A stretch of DNA of 46,519 nt from a virus (taxonomy: Duplodnaviria > Heunggongvirae > Uroviricota > Caudoviricetes), in IMG/VR virus record IMGVR_UViG_3300025387_000013, positions 1 to 46,519 of that record; one strand, 5' to 3'. A program made the position numbers and the translations under genes. Shown piece after piece: positions 11,126-30,633 of the stretch; position 1 is the stretch's first letter, and every line of letters begins with the position of its first letter. The notes below the pieces were generated by a model that was not told where the DNA came from, made no database searches, and was given only the letters and a program-made list of their open reading frames with translations.

Positions 11126-11920
11126 ATGCTTAATAAGGATTACATAATGCCTTTGTTAGGAGGTAGACTTGGTAACAACTTGTTTATGATAGCTCATGCT
11201 TATGTAAAAGGGCTTGACTATAATAAACAGGTTGTTATCTATAAACCTCATGTGCAATATCATGGAAATGATTATTCTCAGAACATCTTTAAGAAACTAG
11301 AATTTACAGATGTATTAGAAGATAGTAAGAATTTAAATCTTGCAGTTCCTTCTGATGATCAGCCTACATTTTATTATGGATATTATCAAAGTGAAAGATA
11401 CTTTGAGAGATATAGTGAAAATATAAAAAGTTTATTTGGGCCACCTGCTGAATTTATAAATAGAATAAAGCAAGAACTTCCTTTTATATTTGAAGGTGAT
11501 GTAACAGTAATAAATGTTCGTAGAGGAGATTATTTACACTATCCTAACTATCATCCTGTAATTACAACAGAATACATATATGAGGCTCTAAAGCACATAA
11601 AAAATACAAGAGTGTATTTAATAGCTAGTGATGATCTTGATTGGTGTAAAGAGAATATTCATCTACCTAATATGCATTTCTTATTAGGATATACAGCAGA
11701 AGAACAATTGTGGATCTTGTCTATGTGTAATAACTTTGTTATATCTAATAGTTCTTTTAGTTGGTGGGCAGCCTATCTATCTAGATATAGAAACAAAATA
11801 GTTGTAGCTCCTCAAACATGGTTTGGTCCTGATCATTTTAACTCCTGGCAAGATATGTATTGTTATAATTGGAAAATTCTTCCAACTTATTTTGAAAACG
11901 GATTAATAAAACCAAAATGA
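11126..11920 (+). CDS. GT11 family alpha-1,2-fucosyltransferase-like protein
   Basis: GGRLGNNLF, GYYQSERYF, INVRRGDYL, ASDDLDWCKEN, ISNSSFSWWAAYL, VAPQTWF. Confidence 0.9.
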   Translation: MLNKDYIMPLLGGRLGNNLFMIAHAYVKGLDYNKQVVIYKPHVQYHGNDYSQNIFKKLEFTDVLEDSKNLNLAVPSDDQPTFYYGYYQSERYFERYSENIKSLFGPPAEFINRIKQELPFIFEGDVTVINVRRGDYLHYPNYHPVITTEYIYEALKHIKNTRVYLIASDDLDWCKENIHLPNMHFLLGYTAEEQLWILSMCNNFVISNSSFSWWAAYLSRYRNKIVVAPQTWFGPDHFNSWQDMYCYNWKILPTYFENGLIKPK

Positions 11921-12606
11921 TTTCTGTATTAACACTTACGTACAAAAGACACCATCTATTAGAAGAAGCTATTGAATCGTTTTTACAGAACGAAAGCTTC
12001 CATCCTAAAGAAATGGTTATAATCAACGATAACCCTGAAGTAGACTATGTTTATGATCATGAAGATGTAAGAATCATCAATCATAAACAAAGATTTCCTT
12101 CTATAGCAGCTAAAATTGAATGGGGCTATAAACAATGTAAATATGATTATATCTACAGGCTAGATGATGATGATCTTTTAAACAAAACAGCAATATCTAA
12201 TGCTACGTTAGATATATTAGAGAACCCTGGATATGAAATCTATAGAAGCTCAGGTATGTATTTCTTTGTACATAATATCTTTGAAGGTCTTAATAGCAAC
12301 ATTAACAATGGAAATATATATACTAAAGAGTATTTAGATAGGATTAAGTTTCCAGATTTGTCTGGTACAGAAGATGATAATATTACTTATGGACATGGTG
12401 CCAAAATATTTGAATCTAAAAGAAAACCAACAATGCTTTATAGATGGGGAATGAATACGTTACATATTTCTGGAATGGGAATACAACCCAATCATGCAAT
12501 TCTTGCCCAAGCTGATAGAGTGTTAGATAATACTAAAGGGGTAATAACACTTAACCCACATTTTGATAATGATTATTATGAACAAATAAAAAGAGCCTCC
12601 AAATAG
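11917..12606 (+). CDS. GT2 family glycosyltransferase
   Basis: ISVLTLTYKR...AIESFL...VIIND; YIYRLDDDD (DxD). Confidence 0.85.
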   Translation: MISVLTLTYKRHHLLEEAIESFLQNESFHPKEMVIINDNPEVDYVYDHEDVRIINHKQRFPSIAAKIEWGYKQCKYDYIYRLDDDDLLNKTAISNATLDILENPGYEIYRSSGMYFFVHNIFEGLNSNINNGNIYTKEYLDRIKFPDLSGTEDDNITYGHGAKIFESKRKPTMLYRWGMNTLHISGMGIQPNHAILAQADRVLDNTKGVITLNPHFDNDYYEQIKRASK

Positions 12607-12919: not shown

Positions 12920-13222
12920 TTAGCAACCATTTTTACATTTACCCATCTTAGCTCCACCACCCTTACCAGAGTAGTTTTTACCAATTTGTTTACCGTAGCT
13001 ACCTAATTGCATAGATACTGTACCACCAGATTTGTATTTCTTAGCTTTTACTTTACCACCTTTTTTCATCATAGGTTGACCACCGCCCATTGGGGCACCA
13101 CCACCGCCCATTGGAGCTTGTGGAGCAGGAGGAGGAATACCAGGACCAGGAGCTGCTTTTCTTGCAGGAGCAACAGGCTTAGCTGCTGCCATAGGTTTAC
13201 GAACTGTTTTTTTCATTGCCAT
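12920..13222 (-). CDS. small basic Lys/Gly/Pro/Met-rich protein
   Basis: Start placed at MAMKKTVRK (13222); motifs MKKGG and YKSGG. Confidence 0.7.
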   Translation of the reverse strand: MAMKKTVRKPMAAAKPVAPARKAAPGPGIPPPAPQAPMGGGGAPMGGGQPMMKKGGKVKAKKYKSGGTVSMQLGSYGKQIGKNYSGKGGGAKMGKCKNGC

Positions 13223-13241
13223 TGTTATAATTTTTAGATTG

Positions 13242-13397
13242 TTATTTACCTTTACGAGCTTTACGCATTGCTTTGAATGTTTGAGCAAGAGCTTTTCTTT
13301 TAGGAGTGCATGTAGCTTTGGTCATTGGTGTACAAAATCCTTTATGTTTTGGATTTACAGCATCCTGTATCCAATTCTTTTTACTAGCTTTTGCCAT
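13242..13397 (-). CDS. small basic protein (51 aa, not in ORF track)
   Basis: Manual translation: MAKASKKNWIQDAVNPKHKGFCTPMTKATCTPKRKALAQTFKAMRKARKGK*. Confidence 0.75.
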   Translation of the reverse strand: MAKASKKNWIQDAVNPKHKGFCTPMTKATCTPKRKALAQTFKAMRKARKGK

Positions 13398-13399
13398 GA

Positions 13400-13771
13400 T
13401 TATTTCTTTTTAGCTTTGCCACCCATTTTCATGGTTTGACTTTTGCTCATCATAATATCATTCTTTTTCTTAGCCATTTTAACACTTGTTTTGGCCATCT
13501 TCTTACCAGAAGCTATCTTCTTTAAAGATCCACCCATTTCCATTTTACCACCATTCTTTTGCTTCTTAGGAACTACATCCATATTAGCATTATCAACAGC
13601 TTTTAACCATGTAGGTCTATTTGCTTTTTGTAAAGAATCATATCTAGCCCTATCAGTAGAATCTTGAGCAGGGGTAGTTTTTGGCATAGAGTTTATAGCT
13701 TTCATTGCAGCATCTCTATCATACTTTGGTGTATTTAAACCTGATTGTGCTTTCTTAACTATCTTTTTCAT
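13400..13771 (-). CDS. small basic protein with xGG motifs
   Basis: KKAQSG, QKNGG, MEMGG, MKMGG. Confidence 0.7.
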   Translation of the reverse strand: MKKIVKKAQSGLNTPKYDRDAAMKAINSMPKTTPAQDSTDRARYDSLQKANRPTWLKAVDNANMDVVPKKQKNGGKMEMGGSLKKIASGKKMAKTSVKMAKKKNDIMMSKSQTMKMGGKAKKK

Positions 13772-13772
13772 A

Positions 13773-13958
13773 TTATTTACTTTTCATTTTTGTAGCACCC
13801 AATTCTTTGTTTTTAACAAGCTTAGCAGAACCTTTAGCTTTAGCTAATGTTTTGTTTTGCACCTTGGTCCAAGCACCTTTAGGATCTACAGGACCTACAC
13901 GTTTATTAGGAGCTTTAAGTCCTGTGAGACTTCCTCCTGCTTTTTTAACAGTTGCCAT
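13773..13958 (-). CDS. small basic protein
   Basis: MATVKKAGG...GPVDPKGAWTKVQ. Confidence 0.7.
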   Translation of the reverse strand: MATVKKAGGSLTGLKAPNKRVGPVDPKGAWTKVQNKTLAKAKGSAKLVKNKELGATKMKSK

Positions 13959-14257
13959 TATTTTTTAGTTTTAGCTTTTATTTTCTTTTCTTGTTTAATC
14001 ATCTGAGTTGTTGGTTTCTTTCCAGAACCTTTATTCTCACGAATTGAATCCCAAAGACCATGTTGAGATGTGGAACCACCATTCTTCAATCCACTTCCTT
14101 TAAAAGGTCCTTTCTTTTGAATTAATGGTCCATTAGGAACAGGACTGATAGATCCTTTAATAGCAGGAATAGTGTCTCCATTCTGAAGCACTTTCTTTCC
14201 TACATAAGCTGTAGCTTTCTGTGGATTATAAGGACCAGGTTTTTTAATACTAGCCAT
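13958..14257 (-). CDS. small basic protein
   Basis: LKNGG; GLWDSIRENKGSGKKPT; TAATG coupling to neighbours. Confidence 0.7.
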   Translation of the reverse strand: MASIKKPGPYNPQKATAYVGKKVLQNGDTIPAIKGSISPVPNGPLIQKKGPFKGSGLKNGGSTSQHGLWDSIRENKGSGKKPTTQMIKQEKKIKAKTKK

Positions 14258-14559
14258 TACTTACGCTTTTTTGCACCTGCTATTTTATCAGCAAATGTAA
14301 TTTTATCTTTAGGAGGAGCTAATGCTGCAAACTTCTTAAGTTTACCACCCATTTTCATACCTGGTTTCTTTTCAGAAGCAGGTTTATTAGTGATAGCAGG
14401 ATTAGCCTTAGGAGCATATTTTCCTTTACCAGCTTGTCTATCCATAGCATCAGCCCATTTAGTATTCCAATCATCTTGACTCTTTTGAGAAATAGGTCTT
14501 CCTGTTTCAGTTTTAGTCATTCCTTTAGGAACATCTCCACCAGCTTGATATTTTTTCAT
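14257..14559 (-). CDS. small basic protein
   Basis: MKKYQAGG, MKMGG, KFAALAPPKDKITFADKIAGA. Confidence 0.7.
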   Translation of the reverse strand: MKKYQAGGDVPKGMTKTETGRPISQKSQDDWNTKWADAMDRQAGKGKYAPKANPAITNKPASEKKPGMKMGGKLKKFAALAPPKDKITFADKIAGAKKRK

Positions 14560-14836: not shown

Positions 14837-15133
14837 TTATGAATTCTCCAAATTTAATTCAATTTCAAACACTATTGTTGCAGAGGTTTTGATACTCTTA
14901 CTTAAATCTAGTTTGATTTGAAATATGTTATGTAGCTTTAATATTTCTTCTAATAATAATTCATTGTATTTAGGAAGGCTAGCTGCTAGTCTGAAATGAT
15001 ATGAATTAGGATTCTTTGTAATCTCAAGAATAGAAAGTTCATCTATAGAATCAATAATTCCTTCTAAATGTGCAAAATAAGCTATTTCATTATCCTGCAT
15101 CACTTCTGGAAAGAATTTCTTACTTATATACAT
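14837..15133 (-). CDS. hypothetical protein
   Basis: 98-aa ORF coupled to the upstream gene. Confidence 0.7.
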   Translation of the reverse strand: MYISKKFFPEVMQDNEIAYFAHLEGIIDSIDELSILEITKNPNSYHFRLAASLPKYNELLLEEILKLHNIFQIKLDLSKSIKTSATIVFEIELNLENS

Positions 15134-15546
15134 TATGACATAGTTAAGAAATACAAAGTTTGTGCTGCTTTACCACTAAGATCTTGAGCTATGTTTTCAA
15201 TATCTGCATAGTCCTTACTTCTAGCAAAGAGTTCTAAATCTTCAGCAAATGCTCTAAGGTCTTTTAGCACCTTTGTAGATAATCCTGGAGAATAGTCTAC
15301 AGAAGGTGCCACCTTACTAGCTTTTACTCTTTTTCCTTCATAACCCATTAGTTTCTCAAGGATATCATCTTTAGCTTCTACCACCTCTTTCCACACATTC
15401 AATGCTATATGTTCAGCATGGGACGTTGTTTGCAGATGTGTAAGATGTATCTGTTCATAGAAATAAGACATTCTAGCTCCAATAATATCCATTGTAAGCT
15501 GTTCTCCAGCTCCTAACATTCCTTCAGGAAAGATTGATTTTGACAT
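15133..15546 (-). CDS. ferritin/Dps-like four-helix protein (DUF5856-like)
   Basis: QIHLTHLQTTSHAEHIAL...KDDILEKLMGYEG...DIENIAQDLSG...YFLTMS. Confidence 0.6.
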   Translation of the reverse strand: MSKSIFPEGMLGAGEQLTMDIIGARMSYFYEQIHLTHLQTTSHAEHIALNVWKEVVEAKDDILEKLMGYEGKRVKASKVAPSVDYSPGLSTKVLKDLRAFAEDLELFARSKDYADIENIAQDLSGKAAQTLYFLTMS

Positions 15547-15800: not shown

Positions 15801-16727
15801 TTAATTTGTTATAATTGTTGCCCCTCTTGCCACTAATGTAGCTACATCTAATATTCCTTGACCTGTAGGAGCAGCGTTTGTTCCATAAGACATATCTACA
15901 ACACATGAAGGTCCCCAAAGTGTTGTACCATTAGTACCATCAAGAGAAACCAACATAGCAAGTATATAATTTACAGTGGTTACACTAAGAGCATTTTGAT
16001 AAAAACCTATATATGTAGATATTTCTTTAATTCCACTAGAGAATGTTAGTGTAGTTAAATTAGGATTGTTTTCAATATATATACCATAATCTGAAGCTAT
16101 TCTAATAATACTAGGAAATGATAAAGAAGTAGCAGCTATGTGTTCTATAAAAAAAGATATTTGTACTTCTTGAAGAAGTGGAAAGTTTATATTAGTTAAA
16201 CTATTTCCATTTATGGAAGATTGACTTCCTCCATCCACATGTTGATTAGAAAGAATTCTAACAACATTAGGAAAATTAATACTAACTAAATTATTACCAT
16301 TTATGTAACCTCCATTTAGTGCTGTTAATTCAGGAAATGTAAGTGTTGTAACAGTAGAAGCTAAATCTCCAGTAAATAAAATATTTGCAGAATTATAAAT
16401 GAGAGCAGAATATGCTACATTAGGAATATTAGATGATATATCAGATACTTGAAACAAAGCAATATTCATTGCAGCTGGATTTGATATTACACCATTTGCT
16501 ACATATTTTACAATAGTAGGTTGTGTTATTGATGTAACTGCTGCATCCACCTTTTTTAATGCTAATGTCAAACAATCCCCAGTTTTTATTCCTGTATTGG
16601 GGAGATTTGTTCCAATGTATATTACATCATCAGACTTTGTATAAATACAATAACCTGGACCTCCTGGTGATAATAAATATTTACCATAACAAGGATTTCC
16701 AGGTTGACAAGGAAGAGGTATATTCAT
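15801..16727 (-). CDS. putative virion/appendage protein with fibre-type N-terminal module and LRR/receptor-L-like repeats
   Basis: N-terminal CIYTKSDDVIYIGTNLPNTGIKTGDCLTLALKKVD; repeats LTFPELT, INFPNVV, INFPLLQ, LSFPSII. Confidence 0.6.
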   Translation of the reverse strand: MNIPLPCQPGNPCYGKYLLSPGGPGYCIYTKSDDVIYIGTNLPNTGIKTGDCLTLALKKVDAAVTSITQPTIVKYVANGVISNPAAMNIALFQVSDISSNIPNVAYSALIYNSANILFTGDLASTVTTLTFPELTALNGGYINGNNLVSINFPNVVRILSNQHVDGGSQSSINGNSLTNINFPLLQEVQISFFIEHIAATSLSFPSIIRIASDYGIYIENNPNLTTLTFSSGIKEISTYIGFYQNALSVTTVNYILAMLVSLDGTNGTTLWGPSCVVDMSYGTNAAPTGQGILDVATLVARGATIITN

Positions 16728-16981
16728 TACACTATTGTTGTTGTATCAGTAGTAGTCTCTGTTGTTGTGTCTGTTGTAGAAGTGCTAGTAGTTGGAGCCT
16801 CTGTTGTAGTCTCTGTAGTACTAGTTGTAGTGGTCAATTCCTCTGTTGTTGTTTCAGTGGTTGTACTAGTGGTAGTAGGTTCTGCAGTGGTTGTGTCAGT
16901 GGTTGTGCTAGTAGTAGTTTCACCACTAACAATAGCTCTAATCCTAGCTTGTGTTTCTCTAGCTTTATTTATATCAAACAT
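16727..16981 (-). CDS. small mucin-like Thr-rich protein
   Basis: A 20-aa head followed by about 60 aa of T/S/E/D repeats (TTTSTTTDTTTAEPTTTSTT...). Confidence 0.75.
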   Translation of the reverse strand: MFDINKARETQARIRAIVSGETTTSTTTDTTTAEPTTTSTTTETTTEELTTTTSTTETTTEAPTTSTSTTDTTTETTTDTTTIV

Positions 16982-16995
16982 ATTGTATATTTTAA

Positions 16996-17436
16996 TTAGT
17001 CAGAAAATGCAGTAGCTCCTAGCACTGAAGTACCATTAGCTGCAAATATAGTGGCAGCTTCATAACTTACTTCTAATAGTAAATTACCATATCCATCCAC
17101 TTTAAAATGTCCATATCCTGGAATGGTGTTATTTAAAACTGTAGCTAATTCATATTGATCTGCTGCATTTTGACCAGTATAAAACTCTAGATATCCATTA
17201 GGAGTAATCATTTGTGCAGTGAATAATACAAAGTCTACACTTACTAAAGGAAAGTTAGAAGTTATATCCACTACAATAGTTTGTTGATCTGTATTGCAAC
17301 ATTCGTAGCCTTGTACTTCTTGCCATTTTCCTACCTTAGGTATAGATCTGCGTAAGACTAAGCTACCTGCTACTACTCTGCCACTACCATCATAGCGGAC
17401 ATAAGCTTTTAAATCACGTTTGTTAATGCTTCCCAT
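16996..17436 (-). CDS. hypothetical virion-associated protein
   Basis: N-terminal KAYVRYDGSGRVVAGSLVLRRSIPKVGKWQEV...YECCN followed by a beta-rich domain. Confidence 0.65.
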   Translation of the reverse strand: MGSINKRDLKAYVRYDGSGRVVAGSLVLRRSIPKVGKWQEVQGYECCNTDQQTIVVDITSNFPLVSVDFVLFTAQMITPNGYLEFYTGQNAADQYELATVLNNTIPGYGHFKVDGYGNLLLEVSYEAATIFAANGTSVLGATAFSD

Positions 17437-17454
17437 AATTTTTAATTAATTAGG

Positions 17455-18474
17455 TTAATAGTTGAGGTTGTATTTATTTTTTAATTCTATAAGTTTTGTA
17501 ACATAATAATGAGTTCCCTTTTTCTTAGAATCTTCATTATTTAATACATTATTTATTTGACTGTCTTTGAAAGGATCTTTACCTGAATGATATAGTCCTT
17601 TATAGAAAGCCTGATAACCAGGCATGTCATTCGATGTAATTCCAGCATTATGAAAGAGTCCAAGTCTATTTACCTTCTCCATATCATCTGAGGCCCATGA
17701 GAAATCCATTTCAGGAATGTTCTTAGTCTCAAGATCTCTTAACCAAAGGTTCCATAACACAGCCCACATATCTGCACACCAGCTTTGAAATCCTTTATTT
17801 TCATTTGCAAAGAATTGACTATTAATATGTTGTAAATATTTACGTATTAATATACAATCGTTCATCACCTTGTTCCAGAAATTAGCATCTACATTCTTTA
17901 AAAAGTATTGTGCTCCTCCTGAGTTATTGTTGTTAGCTTCTGCAATCTCTCTAGTTATACCTATCAAGCTTGTTATCTCAGCTAATACATCTCTAGTTTT
18001 GTATTCTTCCAGTTTCTCTGGGAGAACATCATGTATTTTACTATCAAAATATGAAGCGTTTATATAGCTATTTGTATCTGAAAGATAACAAACATCATCA
18101 TCTATATAATCATCTACGTTAAACCTATCTGTAAATAGAATATCACAATCACAATAGAATACAGCTTTACTAATCATTTCAGGATGGTCTTTGAACCATC
18201 TCATTAAGACATATGGACGTAGAACAGGAATATATGTTCCAAGTTGTTGACTAACATCTCCATCATCTTTGTAATAAGCAAACTGTGCTTCTGGATATAG
18301 ATCTTCTACTTGTTTCCATTTCTCATTTTTCTCTCTGAAGCTTGGTGTATACACTAAGACAATAGCCTTGTCTGAATGTCCAATCTCCTTTAAGCTTTCT
18401 AACCAGGCATGTACTTGCCATGAGAAATACGCATCATCTGGCTGAGCGACTACAAATCTTAATTCCTTACCCAT
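17455..18474 (-). CDS. GT-A glycosyltransferase resembling peptidyl-Ser/Hyp O-glycosyltransferases (SGT1/HPAT-like)
   Basis: YFSWQV...LESL; YIPVLRPYVLMRWF; FYCDCDILF (DxD); SWCADMWAVLW. Start placed at MGKELRF (18474). Confidence 0.6.
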   Translation of the reverse strand: MGKELRFVVAQPDDAYFSWQVHAWLESLKEIGHSDKAIVLVYTPSFREKNEKWKQVEDLYPEAQFAYYKDDGDVSQQLGTYIPVLRPYVLMRWFKDHPEMISKAVFYCDCDILFTDRFNVDDYIDDDVCYLSDTNSYINASYFDSKIHDVLPEKLEEYKTRDVLAEITSLIGITREIAEANNNNSGGAQYFLKNVDANFWNKVMNDCILIRKYLQHINSQFFANENKGFQSWCADMWAVLWNLWLRDLETKNIPEMDFSWASDDMEKVNRLGLFHNAGITSNDMPGYQAFYKGLYHSGKDPFKDSQINNVLNNEDSKKKGTHYYVTKLIELKNKYNLNY

Positions 18475-18475
18475 A

Positions 18476-19069
18476 TTATTTAGTTGTTGGTTTACATCTT
18501 TCATCTCTTCTTAGTATATCAGTTGCATTAAACTTCCAAGTTTTTCCAGCTATGATTGCTCTAACTGTATACAAACTAACTCCTAATATTTCAGAGACTT
18601 CTTTTGCACCTTTTCCTGAGTTATATAATTCTTTAATAATAGTAACTTTTTTATCTGTGAGTGTTGCTCTACCATTTCCTTCACCAGCTCTACTAGGTTG
18701 TAGTCCTAATTTATAAGCATGTAATTGATTTTCTGAATTAGTAACCCACTCAAGATTTACAATACTATTATCAGTTTTTATACCATTAATGTGATTTATT
18801 TGAGTACATCCTTCAGGTTTTACTAAGAAAGCACTAGCTACAAGTTTATGAACTAATCTAGTGTGAGTTCCATTTTTACGAAGCCTAACTTCAGGATATC
18901 CCTTTTTATTAAGCATTTGTTTCATTTCTTGTCCTCTAGTTAATCGAAGTCCATTTCTACCTTGTTTAAGTCTATCTATTCCTCTAATTTTACCAAGACT
19001 ACTTACCTGATATCCTTCAAAGTTAGGAACATCTCTCCATTCTTCACAGATAAACTTAAGATCCTTCAT
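18476..19069 (-). CDS. NUMOD4-HNH homing endonuclease
   Basis: EEWRDVPNFEGYQVSSLGKIR (NUMOD4); VHKLVASAF...INHINGIKTDNSIVNLEWVTNSENQLHA; C-terminal HTH-like tail. Confidence 0.9.
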   Translation of the reverse strand: MKDLKFICEEWRDVPNFEGYQVSSLGKIRGIDRLKQGRNGLRLTRGQEMKQMLNKKGYPEVRLRKNGTHTRLVHKLVASAFLVKPEGCTQINHINGIKTDNSIVNLEWVTNSENQLHAYKLGLQPSRAGEGNGRATLTDKKVTIIKELYNSGKGAKEVSEILGVSLYTVRAIIAGKTWKFNATDILRRDERCKPTTK

Positions 19070-19103: not shown

Positions 19104-19217
19104 CTAAGGCTTAATGTTCTTTCCCATCACTTTGGTTAATTGTTCTAGCTGTTTAGCTATGTTCCAAAGCAACTTGGCCTTTTGGCTCCATCCTATTTGT
19201 TGAGAAGGTATTGACAT
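19104..19217 (-). CDS. 37-aa protein paralogous to the N-terminus of the upstream gene (not in ORF track)
   Basis: Manual translation: MSIPSQQIGWSQKAKLLWNIAKQLEQLTKVMGKNIKP*. Confidence 0.75.
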   Translation of the reverse strand: MSIPSQQIGWSQKAKLLWNIAKQLEQLTKVMGKNIKP

Positions 19218-19219
19218 GA

Positions 19220-19792
19220 TTATCCAATATTAAATATAGAAAAATTAACAGATGGTGATAATGGTCTAGTTGGATTAGTTCCTGCAGCAGTTGATAAAAT
19301 TTTCATACCAGTAGCTGGTGACCACCAATAAAACTTAATATATTGTCCAGCAGTTAACGTTATAGTATCTGATATGTGTGCAAGTGTTTGATCATTTTGT
19401 GCTCCAGTTGTAGTGAACGTAAATGCAGAATTATTTACAGCTACATCATTTATAGTGTACCAAACAGTTACATTGTAACTTGACGCTCCTCCAGTAAATG
19501 CAAGTTGAAGAGCTAGATCTATATAATATACACCTGCATTAGTAACATCTATTCTATTATTTGGACCTAATGTAAAACCGTTAGCAGATTGTGTTGAATT
19601 AATTAACACTTGATTTGCTACAGTGGCTCCACCATTATTTTGAGTGGTAGTATCAAAAAAAGTTCCAGAATAAAGAGATAATGGAGCTGGTATATTACCT
19701 GTAACATTAGTTAAATATTCTAATTGCTTAGAAATCTCCCATAACAGATTCTCTTCTGTTCCCCAACCTATCTGTCTAGATGGTACACTCAT
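19220..19792 (-). CDS. virion appendage-like protein with C1q/TNF/BclA-like beta domain
   Basis: Start placed at MSVPSRQIGW (19792); FFDTTTQ...NSANGF-like segment...IDVTNAGVYYIDLALQL...YIKFYW. Confidence 0.6.
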   Translation of the reverse strand: MSVPSRQIGWGTEENLLWEISKQLEYLTNVTGNIPAPLSLYSGTFFDTTTQNNGGATVANQVLINSTQSANGFTLGPNNRIDVTNAGVYYIDLALQLAFTGGASSYNVTVWYTINDVAVNNSAFTFTTTGAQNDQTLAHISDTITLTAGQYIKFYWWSPATGMKILSTAAGTNPTRPLSPSVNFSIFNIG

Positions 19793-21680: not shown

Positions 21681-21761
21681 ATTAGTTGGTGTAGCTATAA
21701 CACAAAATCCCCAATGAAGGGGAATTTAAATGTTATCTAGTTGAAAAATAATAGGTGATAG

Positions 21762-21793
21762 CAAAACTATGTAAAACAAATGATATAACCAAA
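21762..21793 (-). promoter_or_regulatory. Bacteroidota housekeeping-sigma promoter driving the leftward lysis/appendage block
   Basis: Minus strand TTTG(21793-90)-N20-TAGTTTTG(21769-62), exact consensus. Confidence 0.7.
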
Positions 21794-21825
21794 TATTTTT
21801 TTCTTATGGATTGGTATAATTTTCT

Positions 21826-21833
21826 TATTTTTG
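21826..21833 (+). promoter_or_regulatory. possible -7 box for the glycosyltransferase island
   Basis: TATTTTTG 17 nt before ATG 21851; no well-spaced -33 element. Confidence 0.35.
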
Positions 21834-21850
21834 TTAAAAATAACAATTAC

Positions 21851-24055
21851 ATGAAACCAATATGTCTTGATCTAAAAGAGCTTATAGATTTAGAAAATAT
21901 AAACTCTTATATAGAAGACTTATATAATATCTACAGACAAAAGATATATGTATTGTCAAGTCAGCCAGAACATTTCAAAAACAACCCCCACGTTCTAAAA
22001 AGCTATAAAAAGGCATCAATGAATATTGCCTGGTTTGAAAACCATACAGAAATATATACATATGATGTAAAACCAAAACTACTAGTTATAGTTCCTCACA
22101 TGTCCACTGGTGGTTGTCCTCAAGTGACATTAAATAAAGTGGAGCTTCTCCAATCTTCCTTTAATATACAAGTGGTAGAATATGCATTCTATGGGCCAGC
22201 CTATGTGGTTCAGAGAAATAAGATGATTGCTCTAGTGGGAGAAGATAAGTTTCATTCTCTAGGAGAAAATAAGTTTGCAGATCTCATTAAAATATGTGAT
22301 AGGTTCAAGCCACAGGTTATATCTATAGAAGAGTTTCCAGAGATGTTTATGAATACTGAATGTGCTAACTATCTATATAATACAGAGAGAAATTGGAAAA
22401 TTATAGAAACTACACATGATAGTTCATTCAATCCAAGAAACAAATTCTACCTACCTGATCAGTTTGTGTTTGTTAGTGCTTATAGCCTGTTCAAATATAT
22501 TGATCTAAATGTTCCTATGGAGATTATAGAATACCCTGTAGATAAGAAAGAACGTAATAAACTAGCAAGACAACAACAGTTTGGTTTAGATCCTGAGTAT
22601 AAGCATATTGTGATAGTTGGGTTATTTACAGCTAGGAAGAACCAAGGATATGCTTTTGAAATGGCCAGACAATTAGAGAATTATAAAGTAAAGTTTCATT
22701 TCTTAGGTAACCAGGCAGGTAATTTTGAAGACTATTGGAAACCATTGATGGCCAACAAACCTGACAACTGTATCATCTGGGGAGAAAGAAGTGATGTATC
22801 TGAGTTCTTACAAGCTTGTGATATGTTCCTATTCCCATCCAAAGGTGATCGTGGAAACAAGGAACTCAATCCAATTGCTATTAAGGAAGCTCTAGAATAT
22901 GATATGGTTAAGATGATATATCCTCTAGATGTATATTGTAATAAGTATGATGATTATGAGGATGTAGTTTATTTAACAGGAGATGTTAATACTGATAGTA
23001 CCAACTTAATTAGTTATCTAAACCTTACAGCATCTTTAAAGATGAATGTAGATGAGGAAGTGATTGTTATAGGAACCTATCCTAATTTAAAAAGACGTGT
23101 AGAACTTACAAAAGAATGTATAAGATCATTAAAACCATTAGGTAGAAAAATAATTTTAGTTAGTCACTATCCTGTAGATCAAGAGATTCAAAGAATGGTG
23201 GATTATTATATCTATGATAAACATAATCCAATGACCTTTCATTCTTATTATACATTGTTTTTTAATTATGCATCAGACTATGATGTAAATATTAATATTA
23301 ACCAATTACATGATGGTAATCAATCGTTGGCTGTTTTAACTAATCTATTTAATGGGTTTAAACATGCCAAAGCACATGGATTTAAAAGTTTATTCTATGT
23401 TACATTTGATATTATAATTGATCCTAGGGATATACCAGCTATTAATGAATCATTTAATACATTACGTAATGGTAAGAAGGCACATTTAGCTATATTCAAA
23501 ACAGAATTTGAATATGGTATACAAACCAATGGTATGACTTTCAATGTAGACTATTTCTTAGATAGGTTCGATGATGTAAGAGATGTAGAAACTTATAATA
23601 GTATTTGCAAAAATATTGGTTCGCAAAACTTCTTAGAAGATTATCTTGCTAAAAAGTTAGAAAAGCTTAATAAGAATGAGTTATATATTAGACCAATGAA
23701 AAAAAATGGAGAAGCTGAAACATTTCTTGAATATACAGGTGTAGGACTTTCTTCTCATAGTGAGTATTATTCTATTTTACCAGTGATGGAAAAAGATAAT
23801 GTATTCATGTTCTATTTCTATACATATAATATAGATGATAGAATTGTTAAAGTGAGAATAGAAAATACATTATTTGAATTTAATATATCTGAAACTAAAG
23901 AATATAAATATGAGTTTGCTTACACTGGTAAACCTATAACTATAACTATTGAGTTTTATGATGATGATAATCTATACAAAAAAGAATCACATATAATAAA
24001 TGAAGATACACTTGATAAATATATAAACACTGGAAAATTCTCATGGAAAAAATAA
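21851..24055 (+). CDS. bifunctional glycosyltransferase: GT4-like (GT-B) domain fused to a GT-A-like domain
   Basis: VPHMSTGGCP; IVGLFTARKNQ; ACDMFLFPS...ELNPIAIKEAL; C-terminal VIGTYP...IILVSHYP...YYIYDKHNP...FYVTFDII. Start placed at ATG 21851; track uses GTG 21755. Confidence 0.8.
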   Translation: MKPICLDLKELIDLENINSYIEDLYNIYRQKIYVLSSQPEHFKNNPHVLKSYKKASMNIAWFENHTEIYTYDVKPKLLVIVPHMSTGGCPQVTLNKVELLQSSFNIQVVEYAFYGPAYVVQRNKMIALVGEDKFHSLGENKFADLIKICDRFKPQVISIEEFPEMFMNTECANYLYNTERNWKIIETTHDSSFNPRNKFYLPDQFVFVSAYSLFKYIDLNVPMEIIEYPVDKKERNKLARQQQFGLDPEYKHIVIVGLFTARKNQGYAFEMARQLENYKVKFHFLGNQAGNFEDYWKPLMANKPDNCIIWGERSDVSEFLQACDMFLFPSKGDRGNKELNPIAIKEALEYDMVKMIYPLDVYCNKYDDYEDVVYLTGDVNTDSTNLISYLNLTASLKMNVDEEVIVIGTYPNLKRRVELTKECIRSLKPLGRKIILVSHYPVDQEIQRMVDYYIYDKHNPMTFHSYYTLFFNYASDYDVNININQLHDGNQSLAVLTNLFNGFKHAKAHGFKSLFYVTFDIIIDPRDIPAINESFNTLRNGKKAHLAIFKTEFEYGIQTNGMTFNVDYFLDRFDDVRDVETYNSICKNIGSQNFLEDYLAKKLEKLNKNELYIRPMKKNGEAETFLEYTGVGLSSHSEYYSILPVMEKDNVFMFYFYTYNIDDRIVKVRIENTLFEFNISETKEYKYEFAYTGKPITITIEFYDDDNLYKKESHIINEDTLDKYINTGKFSWKK

Positions 24056-25074
24056 ATATGAATATAACACACGTAGCAACAGGACTTATTAACATACCAC
24101 CAAATGGTTGGGGAGCTATTGAAAGACTTATATGGGAATACAAAAAGCAACTTGATCTGCTAGGACATAATGTAGAAATTAAATACATGAATGAACTAGA
24201 AAAACATTCTAACACAATTATCCACACACATATATTTAATCAAGCATTACATTGTAAAGAGCTTGGAATTCCTTATATATTCTCTTTACACGATCATCAT
24301 GCTGAATATTTAGGAAAGGATAGTAGACTGTTTAAAGAAAATCTAGAAGCAATAAAAGGTAGTGTAATTTCTTTTACACATGCTGAGTATCTAATAGACT
24401 TTTTCAGTGAGACAGATAAATTATTCTATCTATCTCATGGAACAGATACATCTTTCTTTACTCCTAACACAGATGTAATACCACATAGACTACTTATGAT
24501 AGCTAACAATGGCCTAGCTGGAGATCCTACAATAGATAGAAAAGGTTTTAGGCAAGGAATAGAAGCTGCTAAAGCTCTAGACTTGCCAATCACAATTGCT
24601 GGTCATCAAGACAATCATAAATTCTTTGACTATCATAGAGATCTTTTAGAATATGATGGTCTTACAATAGAACTATACAATCCAACAGATGAACAAATAA
24701 GAAATCTCTATCAGTCTCATACAATATTTGTACATCCTTCATTCATAGAAGCTGGCCATCCTAACTTAACACTTATGGAAGCAGCAAGTTCTTGTCTTCC
24801 TATTGTAGGAACATACAGAGGATCTAAGCATGTATATGGTATGTGGGTTACACCTACAACATCTACACAAGATATTATATATGGAATAGAACAGACATTA
24901 ATTACATATGATCATAGAAGAGAAGAGATGTTCTCTGTAAGAGAAAGTCTTGATTGGAAACATGTATGTGTAAAGCTTGATAAATATTATCAGAATGTTG
25001 TAAAGGTGAATGATCTGTATACAACAGATGTAACAAAAGAAAAATATACATCACTTTATTTAAACCTTGTATAG
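24043..25074 (+). CDS. GT4-like glycosyltransferase
   Basis: IPPNGWGAIE; DRKG; FVHPSFIEAGHPNLTLMEAASSCLPIVG (Ex7E-type). Confidence 0.85.
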   Translation: MEKINMNITHVATGLINIPPNGWGAIERLIWEYKKQLDLLGHNVEIKYMNELEKHSNTIIHTHIFNQALHCKELGIPYIFSLHDHHAEYLGKDSRLFKENLEAIKGSVISFTHAEYLIDFFSETDKLFYLSHGTDTSFFTPNTDVIPHRLLMIANNGLAGDPTIDRKGFRQGIEAAKALDLPITIAGHQDNHKFFDYHRDLLEYDGLTIELYNPTDEQIRNLYQSHTIFVHPSFIEAGHPNLTLMEAASSCLPIVGTYRGSKHVYGMWVTPTTSTQDIIYGIEQTLITYDHRREEMFSVRESLDWKHVCVKLDKYYQNVVKVNDLYTTDVTKEKYTSLYLNLV

Positions 25075-26160
25075 ATGCTTAAGTATAACTTATACATGAT
25101 TGGTAACATATATTTTGAAATCCTAGAAGCCTGGGAGAACAAAGAATATTATGTTAAAATTGTAGAACAAAAAGGTGATGAAAGATATTTTATTTATGGT
25201 GAAACCTTAAGGCCAGGGATGTGGCTTAGAAGTGATAGATCCTATCTAAGTGACTATTTTGTAGAGATTTGGGATGGTGATCAGTTAAGAGAAGAGATAG
25301 ATGTAATTAAACACATCACTAGTCTGAAGGTTTTTATAACCCTTGAATCTAAGTCTATAGGAGATAACTTAGCTTGGATACCTTATTGTTTAGAGTTTAA
25401 AAAACAATACAAATGTGATGTTGTAGTTTCTACATTTCATAACACTCTATTTAAGAGTGTATATCCAGAGCTATCATTTGTTGAACCAGGATGTGTTGTA
25501 CATGGTATTATGGCTATGTTTCATGTTGGTTGGGATTGGAATCCAAACAATGAACCTCAGGAACCAAATCTTATTCCTTTACAAAAAGCTGCTACTAACA
25601 TTCTTAATTTAGAATTCAGAGAGATAAAACCTAGAATAGCATTTCTTCCTAAGAAAAGACCTATGAAGGATAAGTATATTGCTATATCAACAAGATCTAC
25701 ATCTCAAGCAAAACATTGGTATTATTGGCAAGATCTAATAAATATTCTTAAAGAGAAAGAATATAAGGTGGTGGAAGTATCTTTAGAAGGATCTGACTTT
25801 CAAGGACTTGAACCAGTGGAGGATAGAAGCCCTGAGAATGTAATGAATCTAATTCATTATTCAGAATTCTTAATAGGACTTGGTAGTGGTTCTTCTTGGT
25901 TAGCTTGGGCTCTTGGTAAACGTGTTGTAATGATTTCTAATTTCTCAAAGGATGGTCATGAGTTTACAACCAATTGCATAAGAATCAAAGACACATCTAT
26001 ATGTCATGGATGTTGGAACAATCCAATGTTCAGATTTAATAAGGGAGATTGGAACTGGTGCCCTGAACATGAGCATACAGATAGACAATTTGAATGTCAT
26101 AAGCTTATATCAGCAGAAAATGTAATGAAACAGATAATGAAAAAGGGGCTATTAAACTAG
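25075..26160 (+). CDS. TibC/AAH-like autotransporter O-heptosyltransferase-family protein glycosyltransferase
   Basis: SKSIGDNLAW; STSQAKHW; FLIGLGSGSSWLAWALGKRVVMISNFS; CHGCWN...WCP...FEC (Cx2Cx15Cx11C iron finger, 26002-26097). Confidence 0.85.
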   Translation: MLKYNLYMIGNIYFEILEAWENKEYYVKIVEQKGDERYFIYGETLRPGMWLRSDRSYLSDYFVEIWDGDQLREEIDVIKHITSLKVFITLESKSIGDNLAWIPYCLEFKKQYKCDVVVSTFHNTLFKSVYPELSFVEPGCVVHGIMAMFHVGWDWNPNNEPQEPNLIPLQKAATNILNLEFREIKPRIAFLPKKRPMKDKYIAISTRSTSQAKHWYYWQDLINILKEKEYKVVEVSLEGSDFQGLEPVEDRSPENVMNLIHYSEFLIGLGSGSSWLAWALGKRVVMISNFSKDGHEFTTNCIRIKDTSICHGCWNNPMFRFNKGDWNWCPEHEHTDRQFECHKLISAENVMKQIMKKGLLN

Positions 26161-26531: not shown

Positions 26532-26562
26532 CAAAAATAACAAATTAAATTAAACTAACAAT
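26532..26562 (-). promoter_or_regulatory. possible Bacteroidota-type promoter for 26172..26516
   Basis: Minus strand ATTG-N19-TATTTTTG ending 15 nt before the ATG. Confidence 0.45.
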
Positions 26563-26846
26563 TAAATTGTTGTAGTTGTACTAGTGGTTGTTGTAGGAGC
26601 AAATGTTAAATTAAGTGTTTTTGCTGCCCAATTCCAAGCTTGATCATTTGTATTCCAATCAGTTTCATAATCAGGACTTACCATTGATAAGTTTCCTTGA
26701 CTTAACATTACAGTATTTACATCAAAAAGAGCATAATAAAATGATGCTGAATTAATAAGATTGTCATTAATACAATAAAGTTGTAATTGTGTAGCTTGAA
26801 CATTTTGTCCATTTGTCCAAATGTTGATAGGTGTGATTTCTCTCAT
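26562..26846 (-). CDS. tail-fibre-associated small protein with Thr-rich C-terminal tail
   Basis: ITPINIWTNG...SASFYYAL...WNTNDQAWNWAAKTLNLT followed by APTTTTSTTTTI. Confidence 0.65.
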   Translation of the reverse strand: MREITPINIWTNGQNVQATQLQLYCINDNLINSASFYYALFDVNTVMLSQGNLSMVSPDYETDWNTNDQAWNWAAKTLNLTFAPTTTTSTTTTI

Positions 26847-26864: not shown

Positions 26865-29800
26865 TTAATATCCTTCTATAATTAAAAATCCTGTAGATGT
26901 AGCTCCTGTAACAGTCATTGCAGTAGTAGTTAAAGAAGTAACTAAAGCCGCAGCTAAACCATTGGTTGTTAATATAACAGGGGTTTGAGTAAATGCAATA
27001 GGGAAAGTATAAGCCGCAGTACCTACAAGAGCAGCACAATACACTATTACTTTTTTATAAGACGTTCCTTGTTCAGGTTGAGAATAGTTTGCAGTTCCAC
27101 TTGTTGAACCGTTTACTAATGTTTGGGTTGCGGAGTTTTTTAATACAGTTACTTTTGCACTACCTACTACCTGTAGCTTATCTGTACCATTGTCTGTTGT
27201 AGAGCCTAAGATAATATTTCCACCAACTGATATTCTCATTCTTTCAGCATAAGCAGCCCCAGTAGCAAAAACTAAATTTCCAGTACTATTACCTTGTGTG
27301 CCTATTCCAAAATCATTTGCAAGACCAGCAGTAACAGCAGTTGCAGAACCGATAAGACCAATAGAAGATGATGTGATGAAGTCTATCCAAGGCTTACCTG
27401 CACTACTTGAAATTTGTATAACTCTGCCCGCTGATTCACCACCGATAAATCTTGAAAAACCACCCGTAACTCTTAACCCATAATTTCCAACGCCCGTAAA
27501 CGCACCATTTGTAAAAGTTGGACTTATATCCAATCCTACAAGTACATCAGAGTTAGCAGCAGCTACTAATGTAGGAGTAGCTATTATCCCCTGTGCTAAA
27601 GCAGAAGCAGCAGTTACACTTCCTGTTAGAGTTGTTTGTCCGTTATGTCTGCTTGTTCCTGTTACGTCAAGTTTATAGCCTGCGTCTGTTGTAGAATTTA
27701 TTGCTAAGTTTCCTGTTGCTCCAAAAAACTTTGATAAAACGGTAGCACTTGTATTAGCAAAACCAATATTATTATTATTCCCTTCAAGAACTATTGCTGA
27801 TGTTCCACCATTGTATGCACTTTTAATTTTTGTATTATTAGAGGTTGCGTCCCATGTAAAACTTCCAACATTTGAAGATACCCCAATTTGATAACCTCTT
27901 TCTTGATTTCCACCAGAAGCGTAATTTATATACGCCATTTCTGCTCTATTTCCCCCATTCCCAATATAAAGTTGACCGCCTATTAATGCATCTCCTGATG
28001 TTCTTAAAGCATAAGTACTTACTCCTGTAAAAGCACCATTTGTAAACGTAGGGTTTATATCTAAACCTACTAATACATCATTATTAGCTGCTGCTACTAA
28101 TGTAGTGTTATTATATTCACCTCTTGCTATAGCTCCTGATGCTGTCATAGTTCCTGTAACTGTTAAAGCAGGGTTACCTGTTGAAGTGGCATTGAACTTT
28201 CCACTCCCAGTTACCTGTAGCTTATCTATACCATTGTCTGTTGGTAAACTGGTACCAGCTCCTATATAAACATTTCCTGTGCTAAATGATACAAATCTCT
28301 GATTGCCTAATCCATCGGCTAATATAACTAAACTTGAACTACTAGCAGATAATCCGCTTGAACTACTTGTAAAACCAATAATAGTGTTGTAATTACCAGT
28401 TGATATTGGATTTATACTAGCCCCAGTGTAACTTGAACCTACAAAAGTATTAAATTGTCCAGTTGTAATATTACCGCCAACATAAGCACCTATAAGTGTA
28501 TTTTGACTTCCAGTTGTAACATTATTACCAGCTGTACTACCTACTGCAACATTAAAATTACCTGTTGTTGCCGTCTTTAATGTATTAACCCCTATTGCAA
28601 CACATTCTTGTGCTGTTGAACCACTTGTACCATATAATGATGCATAGCCTAATGCTGTGTTTGTTTTACCAGTTACATAATACATTGATTGTGAGCCAAC
28701 AGCAGTATTTTGTGTGGCAGTAGTAGCAGATTTTAAAGCATCTCCACCAATTGCAACATTATATGCTGCATTTACTAAAAGTCCAGCTCTTATTCCTACT
28801 GCAACATTATCTGAATATTGAGTATTTAAAGCATTTAATGCTTGATAACCTATTGCCGTTGCCCAAATATTACTTTGTGCAGTTGCAGCTAATGCACCAT
28901 TACCTAATGCTATGCTATAAATATCTCCCCCTGCCCCTAGCCCAACCCTAACTGTATTAATATTTGCATCAGAACCAACAATTCTTAATCCATAATTTGT
29001 TACGCCCGTAAAAGCTCCATTAGTAAACGTAGGATTAATATCCAATCCTACTAATACATCATTATTTGCAGCAGCAGTTAATGTAGGAGTAAGATATGTT
29101 CCTCTAGCAATGGCAGAAGCAGCTGTAACACTTGGGCTAACTACAACACCTGTTGTTAAGTCTTGTATAGAACTATTACCAATTGTACTAGCTGATGTAA
29201 ATTTAACTACAGTGTTAGTAGTTCCTGAAACAGATACAGATGTTCCACTTGTTGCAGAGGTTCCACTAGAACCAGATGTAGCTGAAGATCCAGAACTACC
29301 AGAAGATGCTGAAGTTCCACTAGATGCACTAGAACCACTTGTTCCAGAAGTTCCACTAGTTGAAGATGACCCACTAGTTCCAGAACTTGCACTTGTTCCA
29401 CTTGATCCTGAGGAACCAGATGAACCAGAACTAGCTGAGGTTCCTGAGCTACCACTTGTAGATGATGATCCACTTGTTCCTGAAGAGGCACTACTACCAC
29501 TAGACCCTGATGTGCTAGAAGAACCAGATGTACCACTAGTTGAGGAAGATCCAGAACTTCCACTTGTTCCACTGGAACCTGTAGCTCCACTAGAACCTGT
29601 AGCTCCACTAGAACCAGATGTTCCACTGGAACCAGATGACCCACTACTAGCAGATGTTCCACTGGAACCTGTAGCTCCACTAGAACCTGTAGCTCCACTA
29701 GAACCAGATGTTCCACTGGAACCAGATGACCCACTACTAGCAGATGTTCCACTGGAACCAGATGACCCACTACTAGCAGATGTTCCACTAGATCCTGTAG

Positions 29801-30560
29801 CTCCACTAGAACCTGTAGCTCCTGATGTACCAGAAGTTCCTGAAGCTCCTGCAATGTTAAGATTCCATGAATTATATGTATGTGTTCCTTTAACAGTTGT
29901 AACATACACTGTCATAAATCCAGTGATTTTTGAATAGCTCCCTACAACTCCTATAAAATAATCATTGACACTATTACTAACTGATACGTATTGACCAAAT
30001 GTATATGCTAAATCTAAATCAGTGGTTAAACTAATTGGACTACCATATACTAATGTTGCTAGATTTATACTAGTAGTAGAAGTTCCTACATATCTATCTC
30101 CACTTAATCCTGATGTTCCACTAGAACCAGAAGTGGCACTAGATCCTGAAGATCCGCTAGTTCCACTTGTACCATTGACACCAGATGTACCATCCACACC
30201 TGAAGAACCGCTTGTACCATCTACACCAGAAGATCCACTAGATCCTGATGTTCCAGAGCTTGCACTGGTTCCACTACTAGCACTAGTTCCACTAGATCCA
30301 CTAGTAGCACTAGACCCACTAGTTCCACTAGAACCAGCATCTCCTGATGTACCAGAGGTACCATAACTAAGACCACTAGAGCCAGATGTACCTGCTGTAC
30401 CAGCCACAGCATTGTGTACAGCAATGTTTATTTTTTGTAATGCTACTTCTAATGTATCATTATTGTTGACATCTATATATACCAGATTTTGCCCTTCGTA
30501 AAACACGCAGGCAGAATCTAATAATACTGGACAAGTTTTTGCAGAACAAGTAACATTCAT
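26865..30560 (-). CDS. long tail fibre / adhesin-like virion protein
   Basis: N-terminal [17 protein letters not shown] module; two Gly/Ser/Thr repeat blocks; NxAxG beta-roll repeats; three copies of a 45-aa module. Start placed at MNVTCS (30560); track uses 30602. Confidence 0.8.
27471..29117 (-). repeat. three dispersed copies of a ~45-aa fibre module
   Basis: (S/G)A(I/L)A(R/Q)G...TL(T/V)AAAN(N/S)DVLVGLDI(N/S)[12 protein letters not shown](G/A)LR at 28980-29117, 28002-28136 and 27471-27605. Confidence 0.9.
29236..30404 (-). repeat. Gly/Ser/Thr low-complexity repeat blocks with exact DNA tandem duplications
   Basis: [13 protein letters not shown] repeats at about 29236-29850 and 30100-30404. 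Exact 90-nt unit at 29566-29655 and 29656-29745; 36-nt subunit at 29620, 29710 and 29746. Confidence 0.9.
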
Positions 30561-30633
30561 AGTAGTGAGGTTTGATATATAACAAAATGCATGGAAGACC
30601 ATGCACTAGTTAATGTAAAAGTAGTTAATAAAC

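Follow-up and report, generated by a model that had tools for sequence, protein, structure and literature searches.

Predicted phage glycosyltransferases of the phrog_4417 family and their linkage to threonine-tract virion proteins

To our knowledge, glycosylation of the phage virion has been shown experimentally only for mycobacteriophages, where it reportedly affects immune recognition of the phage, a finding ascribed to a 2023 Cell Host Microbe paper by Freeman et al. Here we describe a putative glycosyltransferase (GT) gene, at positions 17455 to 18474 on the minus strand of a 46,519-nucleotide stretch of viral DNA (hereafter the window), together with the threonine (Thr)-rich proteins that accompany it. 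This window spans the opening 46.5 kb of a 116,114-bp IMG/VR virus record (IMGVR_UViG_3300025387_000013) that is rated complete. The record has a GC content of about 32% and carries giant open reading frames (ORFs), one of 4,680 amino acids (aa); its major capsid protein has as best named match a Leptolyngbya phage, at 26% identity, and no close named relative was found. We propose that the enzyme probably initiates O-glycosylation at Thr tracts in virion proteins, an 84-aa protein encoded close by being one candidate acceptor. This reading rests on the fold of the enzyme and on gene linkage; the chemistry we infer, that is, a peptide-Thr acceptor, initiation rather than extension, retaining catalysis and the sugar itself, and likewise the presence of the 84-aa protein in the virion. 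No paper on the enzyme family, phrog_4417, or on its link to Thr tracts was found in the literature that we searched.

In mycobacteriophages, C-terminal glycans have been reported on capsid and tail-tube subunits (PMC12619734). There, as at the present locus, GT genes lie beside structural genes, and in the Enterococcus phage phiFL1A, which carries a homologue of our enzyme, Thr tails occur on the same two types of protein. The system proposed here differs in that its tags are near-pure poly-Thr and are also found on tiny anchor-plus-tail proteins and at interdomain hinges, and in that its hosts belong to the Firmicutes and probably to the Bacteroidota rather than to Mycobacterium. The enzyme family may also be a different one: a tblastn search (E<=1e-5) found homologues in 77 deposited phage genomes, nearly all labelled 'hypothetical protein', and none of the 77 records came from a Mycobacterium phage.

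A second comparison is offered by A064R of the Chlorovirus PBCV-1, a virus-encoded cytoplasmic GT-A enzyme that acts on a virion protein and whose GT domain (2p6w) matches the model of our enzyme at Z 11.0. A064R is composed of GT, GT and methyltransferase domains, like the fused forms of the phrog_4417 family. Unlike the phage enzyme, it works in a eukaryotic algal host and on atypical N-linked glycans of the major capsid protein, and it has no poly-Thr tags. Finally, the plant and algal enzymes HPAT (GT95) and SGT1 (GT96) start O-glycans on hydroxyl-rich extended peptide repeats, contain a DxD motif and have a motif order similar to that of the phage enzyme. They are Golgi-anchored and use hydroxyproline or serine (Ser) as acceptors, whereas the phage enzyme appears to be soluble and its candidate acceptor is Thr. 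A functional analogy, in which the phage enzyme would likewise initiate glycans on a hydroxyl-rich extended peptide, seems reasonable.

Linkage of the enzyme gene to poly-Thr proteins

We defined a strict poly-Thr tract as at least eight Ser/Thr, of which at least six Thr, within 10 residues; as a background, 3-4% of ORFs contain one. The set of close relatives comprised 80 related loci (64-86% identity), all of them enzyme-carrying, which were reduced to 72 by dereplication. Among these 72, a strict tract was encoded by the first gene downstream of the enzyme in 73% of loci, by the second in 37% and by the third in 12%. Upstream, the corresponding values were 50% at the first position, 18% at the second and 3% at the third, and at a distance of four or more genes the frequency was 0% on either side. 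In many relatives the upstream genes encode proteins of 44-65 aa that consist of an anchor helix and a Thr tail, and nothing more.

The same pairing of enzyme and Thr tracts recurs in about 15 of 17 other lineages, which include phages of Enterococcus, Lactococcus, Lactobacillus, Staphylococcus, Clostridium and Chryseobacterium as well as the metagenomic lineages L091/92, L093, L094, L095 and L096. A rough binomial estimate for finding a tract in a direct neighbour in at least 11 of the 17 gave 7e-9, with the proviso that the lineages are not fully independent. When deposited phages were sampled, the gene directly upstream of the homologue was found to encode Thr tracts in eight of nine records. 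The tract-bearing products are the major tail protein in both phiFL1A and Lactococcus phage 1706, the tail tube of Clostridium phage phiCTP1 and small proteins of the head or tail module in the Lactobacillus phages Semele and iLp84; tract-bearing upstream neighbours were also present in Staphylococcus phage RQ1, Levilactobacillus phage ENFP1 and Chryseobacterium phage MA9V-3. Small immunoglobulin-like head or tail proteins are among these products. In the exception, bIL285, it is the tail-tube protein, encoded 2 kb away, that has the Thr tail.

Presence and absence of the two elements also coincided among orthologues of the SPP1-type tail-tube protein. Both the enzyme and the Thr tail were found in phiFL1A and R3.3 (2/2), and neither in Javan47, 315.6, Javan311, phiJL-1 or ATCC8014 (0/5), the positive control for this comparison having matched in 5/5 records. 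In phiFL1A, Thr tails are confined to two of the 64 ORFs, the major head protein gp45 (L113:22875-23870) and the major tail protein gp50 (25260-25916). Apart from the enzyme homologue gp51, no GT-like gene is annotated or was found in that phage. A sole GT candidate in a genome with two Thr-tailed proteins argues for direct action on protein.

A separate observation concerns Staphylococcus phage RQ1 (L006:3229-3931), in which the major tail ORF ends with Thr7 and a stop and is overlapped, in another frame, by a 104-aa ORF of near-pure poly-Thr. The overlap may reflect a programmed frameshift, as for SPP1 gp17.1*, by which some tail-tube subunits would acquire a long Thr tail, or else a sequencing error.

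Family and predicted fold of the enzyme

The longest ORF at the enzyme locus (17455 to 18504, minus strand) encodes 349 aa, and an internal start at 18474 (MGKELRF), two bases past the stop of the preceding HNH gene, gives a product of 339 aa. Since nearly all relatives are 337-341 aa long and align from residue 1-3 of the shorter form, 18474 is likely to be the real start. The 339-aa protein matches phrog_4417, a family of unknown function, with an E value of 1.6e-51; the match joins residues 16-336 to positions 2-286 of the 293-position profile. This family is large, comprising 1,928 clusters at 90% identity and 764 representatives at 50% identity (E<=1e-3). Pfam, NCBIfam and PDB sequence searches with the enzyme returned chance-level matches only. 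By hmmscan the enzyme had no match to PF01501 (Glyco_transf_8), and a six-frame search of the whole 116-kb genome with this profile found nothing, while five control genomes did match.

The original prediction had singled out four motifs in the enzyme, YFSWQ, Y...RP, DxD and WxxDMW. All four are present, as YFSWQ at residues 16-20, Y81-x4-R86-P87, DCD at 109-111 and WCADMW at 232-237, and they fall on invariant or near-invariant columns of the family. In an alignment of 60 diverse members, residues D109, D111, H275, K292, Y81, Y137 and F258 were invariant, and W19, R86, Q230, D235, G278 and P301 nearly so.

An AlphaFold2 model computed from a 60-sequence alignment (predicted local distance difference test, pLDDT, 97.2; predicted template modelling score, pTM, 0.94) has a GT-A fold. 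Searched against representative structures, it matched the lipooligosaccharide (LOS) galactosyltransferase LgtC (Z 14.3), glycogenin (14.1), the Skp1 alpha-galactosyltransferase (13.9), WbbM (13.0), UGGT (12.8), an Anaerococcus GT8 protein (12.7), GlyE (12.6) and a bacterial GT6 enzyme (12.3), so that LgtC is tied with the protein-directed glycogenin, Skp1 galactosyltransferase, UGGT and GlyE (14.1-12.6). A Foldseek search of solved structures concurred, and the nearest solved folds belong to GT8, GT77, GT24 and GT6. Among models of viral proteins, the best matches after members of the family itself were giant-virus GT8 proteins.

The resemblance to the GT8 enzymes LgtC, glycogenin and GlyE, the last from the pneumococcal serine-rich-repeat protein pathway, extends over 220-240 residues (Z 12.6-14.3). 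It takes in the DxD motif and a His-x-x-Gly...Lys arrangement near the C-terminal end of the domain (D109/D111, H275, G278 and K292). Of these enzymes, glycogenin and GlyE have proteins, or glycans bound to proteins, as their acceptors. However, this is a likeness at the level of the fold only, with 8-11% identity and TM values of about 0.4-0.5, and the phage enzyme has some 80 additional residues in the form of helical insertions. We therefore describe it as a separate GT-A family in the GT8-like retaining clan, 'GT8-like retaining GT-A, family phrog_4417'.

All of the top fold neighbours are retaining, metal-dependent enzymes, and we predict the same of the phage protein. A retaining mechanism, and with it an alpha linkage, is suggested because the neighbours are retaining and because the invariant DxD, His275 and Lys292 fit. 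The model has no hydrophobic helix at either terminus, the sequence opening with beta-strand 1 (residues 5-12), and the enzyme is most likely soluble and cytoplasmic. In fusion proteins of the family the enzyme domain usually occupies the N-terminal part and precedes GT2, GT6, GT7C, GT25 or GT29 domains or methyltransferases, an arrangement that fits the first step of glycan assembly. The fusion partners in P0128, P0170, P0204, P0253, P0265 and others also include 'Gly_transf_sug' and S-adenosylmethionine methyltransferases, and GT29 is sialyltransferase-type; such partners point to multi-step glycans in other phages, possibly methylated or sialylated.

The same data bear on the proposal, made in the original prediction, that the enzyme belongs with plant/algal GT95/GT96. 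A specific relationship with HPAT or SGT1 would concern family identity and would be compatible with a function in Thr glycosylation; we consider it unlikely. The order YxxWQ / RP / DxD / WxxDMW is conserved throughout the enzyme family and would suit such a relationship, but these motifs sit at positions generic to GT-A enzymes. Similarly, GT95 is predicted to be GT-A-like and has been reported to be related to GT96 (PMC8476585; PMC8012813), although GT96 is predicted to have a different fold and neither has been solved structurally (PMC8476585). The Pfam HPAT profile PF23452 matched neither the enzyme (E<=1) nor any of 120 diverse family members (E<=0.01), and found nothing over the whole genome, a search for which prokaryote genomes provide no positive control. 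A search of proteins of 686-2000 aa with the family profile returned 12 phage-type fusions, none of them SGT1-like, although this search depends on a word index and is weak evidence. Additionally, the phage enzyme is without a type-II membrane anchor, its best solved neighbours belong to the four other families named above, and the PDB searches brought up no GT95/96 chain. The GT95/GT96 label is thus not supported, and should be dropped unless profile-profile or fold comparisons come to its aid.

Candidate acceptors and alternative readings

The second gene downstream of the enzyme (16727 to 16981, minus strand) encodes the 84-aa protein, a 'mini-mucin' with a conserved 21-aa head and a 63-aa tail. 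As the original prediction had noted, it lies two genes from the enzyme and consists mostly of Thr: it contains 42 Thr and 6 Ser, and the tail is 73% Thr/Ser with Glu/Asp spacers. The gene is on the operon strand, begins 14 nt past the preceding stop and has a stop that overlaps the next start codon, and its head is kept at the same position in six relatives (L011, L013, L014, L015, L022 and L024). Strand, tight spacing and the conserved head together indicate a genuine gene rather than a chance or shadow frame, whose head resembles an anchor and whose low-complexity tail evolves fast.

This genome encodes at least six Thr-tract proteins, so that the 84-aa protein, as one of them, is no private partner of the enzyme. 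Strict tracts are present in six of the 148 ORFs, and all six are located in tail-fibre or structural regions. Within the window, a 94-aa Thr-tailed protein (26562 to 26846, minus strand), a further candidate substrate, adjoins a collagen-like fibre gene (26865-30602) that contains collagen repeats and matches tail-fibre PHROGs. Outside the window, Thr-tract proteins of 1,889, 237 and 386 aa are encoded in a structural module near capsid, portal and tail-fibre genes. The notion of an enzyme-substrate pair that produces a glycosylated Thr decoration can therefore be retained in part: the GT fold and, from comparative genomics only, the linkage to Thr-tract virion proteins favour it, and the exclusive pairing with the 84-aa protein falls away. 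Of all candidate substrates for glycosylation in this genome, the 1,889-aa protein (genome positions 60000-65669, minus strand) is the largest, with a (Thr-Ser)n run of about 60 residues and many Thr7-8 blocks spaced by Ala/Pro.

Besides the enzyme, the window encodes five GTs, making six in total. A GT11 (fucosyltransferase-type) and a GT2 gene lie at 11126 to 12606 on the plus strand (Pfam Glyco_transf_11, 1.4e-30; Glycos_transf_2, 1.3e-11). On the same strand, positions 21755 to 26160 hold three more, encoding a 766-aa GT4-containing protein, a GT4 and a GT9-like protein (Pfam Glycos_transf_1, Glyco_trans_1_4 and Glyco_transf_9, the last at 1.9e-06). It is possible that these five extend the glycan.

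Any of the five could also be the initiating enzyme, and this is one of the arguments for a different reading, which we regard as improbable: that our enzyme masks receptors by modifying something other than protein (a glycan of the host envelope, teichoic acid or LOS, for instance), or extends a glycan begun by another enzyme, the Thr tracts being plain flexible linkers. The ranking of the LOS enzyme LgtC as top fold match, with WbbM also high, would agree with this. However, the homologue genes lie inside tail/head morphogenesis operons and not at moron positions, the enzyme comes and goes with the Thr tails on orthologous tail-tube proteins, it is the sole annotated GT candidate in phiFL1A, and no membrane segment is evident. 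That the enzyme glycosylates phage DNA as a protection against restriction is more improbable by far since, although phage GTs often modify DNA (summarised in PMC12619734), no hypermodification pathway is linked to this family, which is found in small temperate Firmicutes phages, in structural operons beside Thr-tract genes. From gene context, both DNA glycosylation and host-glycan modification were rated unlikely.

Several points weigh against peptide-Thr glycosylation. Since the fold neighbours include the non-protein enzymes LgtC and WbbM, the modelled fold leaves the acceptor unfixed, and Thr-rich linkers could serve a mechanical purpose alone. The close relatives are non-independent samples, and two lineages (L114 and L116) carry the enzyme with no strict Thr tract within 5 kb. 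At the present locus, the gene directly downstream of the enzyme (16996 to 17436, minus strand; 146 aa) has no Thr tract, the separate 84-aa gene coming next, and in some relatives the tails of the 84-aa homologues are rich in Pro/Glu/Val rather than Thr. A 37-aa upstream protein (19104 to 19217, minus strand), consisting of the upstream-type anchor helix alone, also seems to have lost its Thr tail: its orthologues are 44-65 aa long, lie one or two genes upstream of the enzyme and have a Thr tail after '...GKNIPA', and the copy in the window stops at '...GKNIKP'.

The scheme that we consider the most likely is as follows. Late in infection, the enzyme would move sugar from a nucleotide sugar to the hydroxyl groups of Thr residues in virion proteins, within their disordered poly-Thr tracts, and the phage's five other GTs might then extend the Thr-linked sugar. 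The candidate acceptors here are the 84-aa protein, the 94-aa Thr-tailed protein and the three tract-bearing proteins encoded in the structural module; related phages offer further candidates in the tiny anchor-plus-tail proteins that flank the enzyme gene. The particle would thereby come to bear stiff bottle-brush structures, both linkers and whiskers, made of glycosylated Thr tracts. A more general proposal, which we consider evenly balanced, is that phrog_4417 proteins are dedicated initiating peptide Thr-O-glycosyltransferases that form, with portable poly-Thr tags, a modular 'tag plus writer' system. Such a system would be common to Firmicutes sipho- and myophages and to large environmental phages, the latter having a coat of tiny anchor-plus-mucin 'glyco-whiskers'. 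The 84-aa protein would be such a whisker, and as many as five additional GTs of the phage would extend the glycans.

If true, glycosylated particles would be common in phages of lactic acid bacteria, enterococci, staphylococci and clostridia, and in aquatic Bacteroidota-type phages. This would bear on phage therapy (through antibody shielding and clearance) and dairy phage biology, and on the stability and stickiness of particles in water and mucus; annotation would benefit as well, with a function assigned to hundreds of 'hypothetical proteins' and of tiny ORFs that now lack annotation. A pair of tag and writer could also provide a simple tool for glyco-engineering of phage surfaces. Since phages such as phiFL1, 1706, bIL285 and phiCTP1 are in culture, the idea is open to direct testing, and the present window is unusual in being so rich in GTs (six) and in having a stand-alone mini-mucin gene.

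Neighbouring genes of the enzyme cluster

The enzyme and Thr-protein genes form a run of tightly packed minus-strand genes, flanked by a block of genes for small basic proteins and by lysis genes. The 146-aa protein encoded directly downstream of the enzyme is composed of an N-terminal beta module (residues 9-42), a hinge (44-46) and a globular C-terminal domain; its AlphaFold2 model has a pLDDT of 86, with low confidence at the hinge. The N-module begins the gene right after the enzyme in 80/80 related loci. In most relatives, it is closed by an invariant Cys-Cys pair and followed by a poly-Thr tract at the hinge, and then by nothing or by a variable domain. In the window copy, the two adjacent invariant cysteines are residues 46-47, just before the point of poly-Thr insertion in the relatives; they may serve in a disulfide, in metal binding or in acylation. 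Searches with the 146-aa protein against solved structures and viral models yielded no meaningful match to a known fold (best Z 4.8), and the sole BFVD match was uncharacterised. Beyond the 84-aa gene, and with a start that overlaps its stop, lies a variable cargo gene for a 308-aa repeat protein (15801 to 16727, minus strand), which gave a weak Receptor-L/leucine-rich-repeat-like Pfam hint only. By tblastn it was detected in three of the 80 related loci, elsewhere in the locus.

On the other side of the enzyme, a homing endonuclease of the HNH/NUMOD4 type (18476 to 19069, minus strand; Pfam NUMOD4 2.2e-14, HNH_3 4e-09) separates the enzyme gene from that of the anchor helix. Since about 12 of the 80 related loci have it at this very site and the remainder lack it, we take it to be a mobile element at a fixed site, outside the system. 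Next to the 37-aa gene, a 190-aa protein (19220 to 19792, minus strand) has the same anchor helix joined to a globular head; its counterparts in some relatives (L012, L024 and L083 among them) have the anchor, then a Thr tract, and then a C-terminal domain.

Further downstream, genes for a 137-aa helical protein (15133-15546, minus strand) and a 98-aa protein (14837-15133, minus strand) come after the Thr-protein cluster, as they do in almost every relative, and the L114 counterpart of the former matches Pfam DUF5856. Just downstream of the cluster, positions 12920-14559 of the minus strand encode, in a row, small and strongly Lys/Gly-rich basic proteins.

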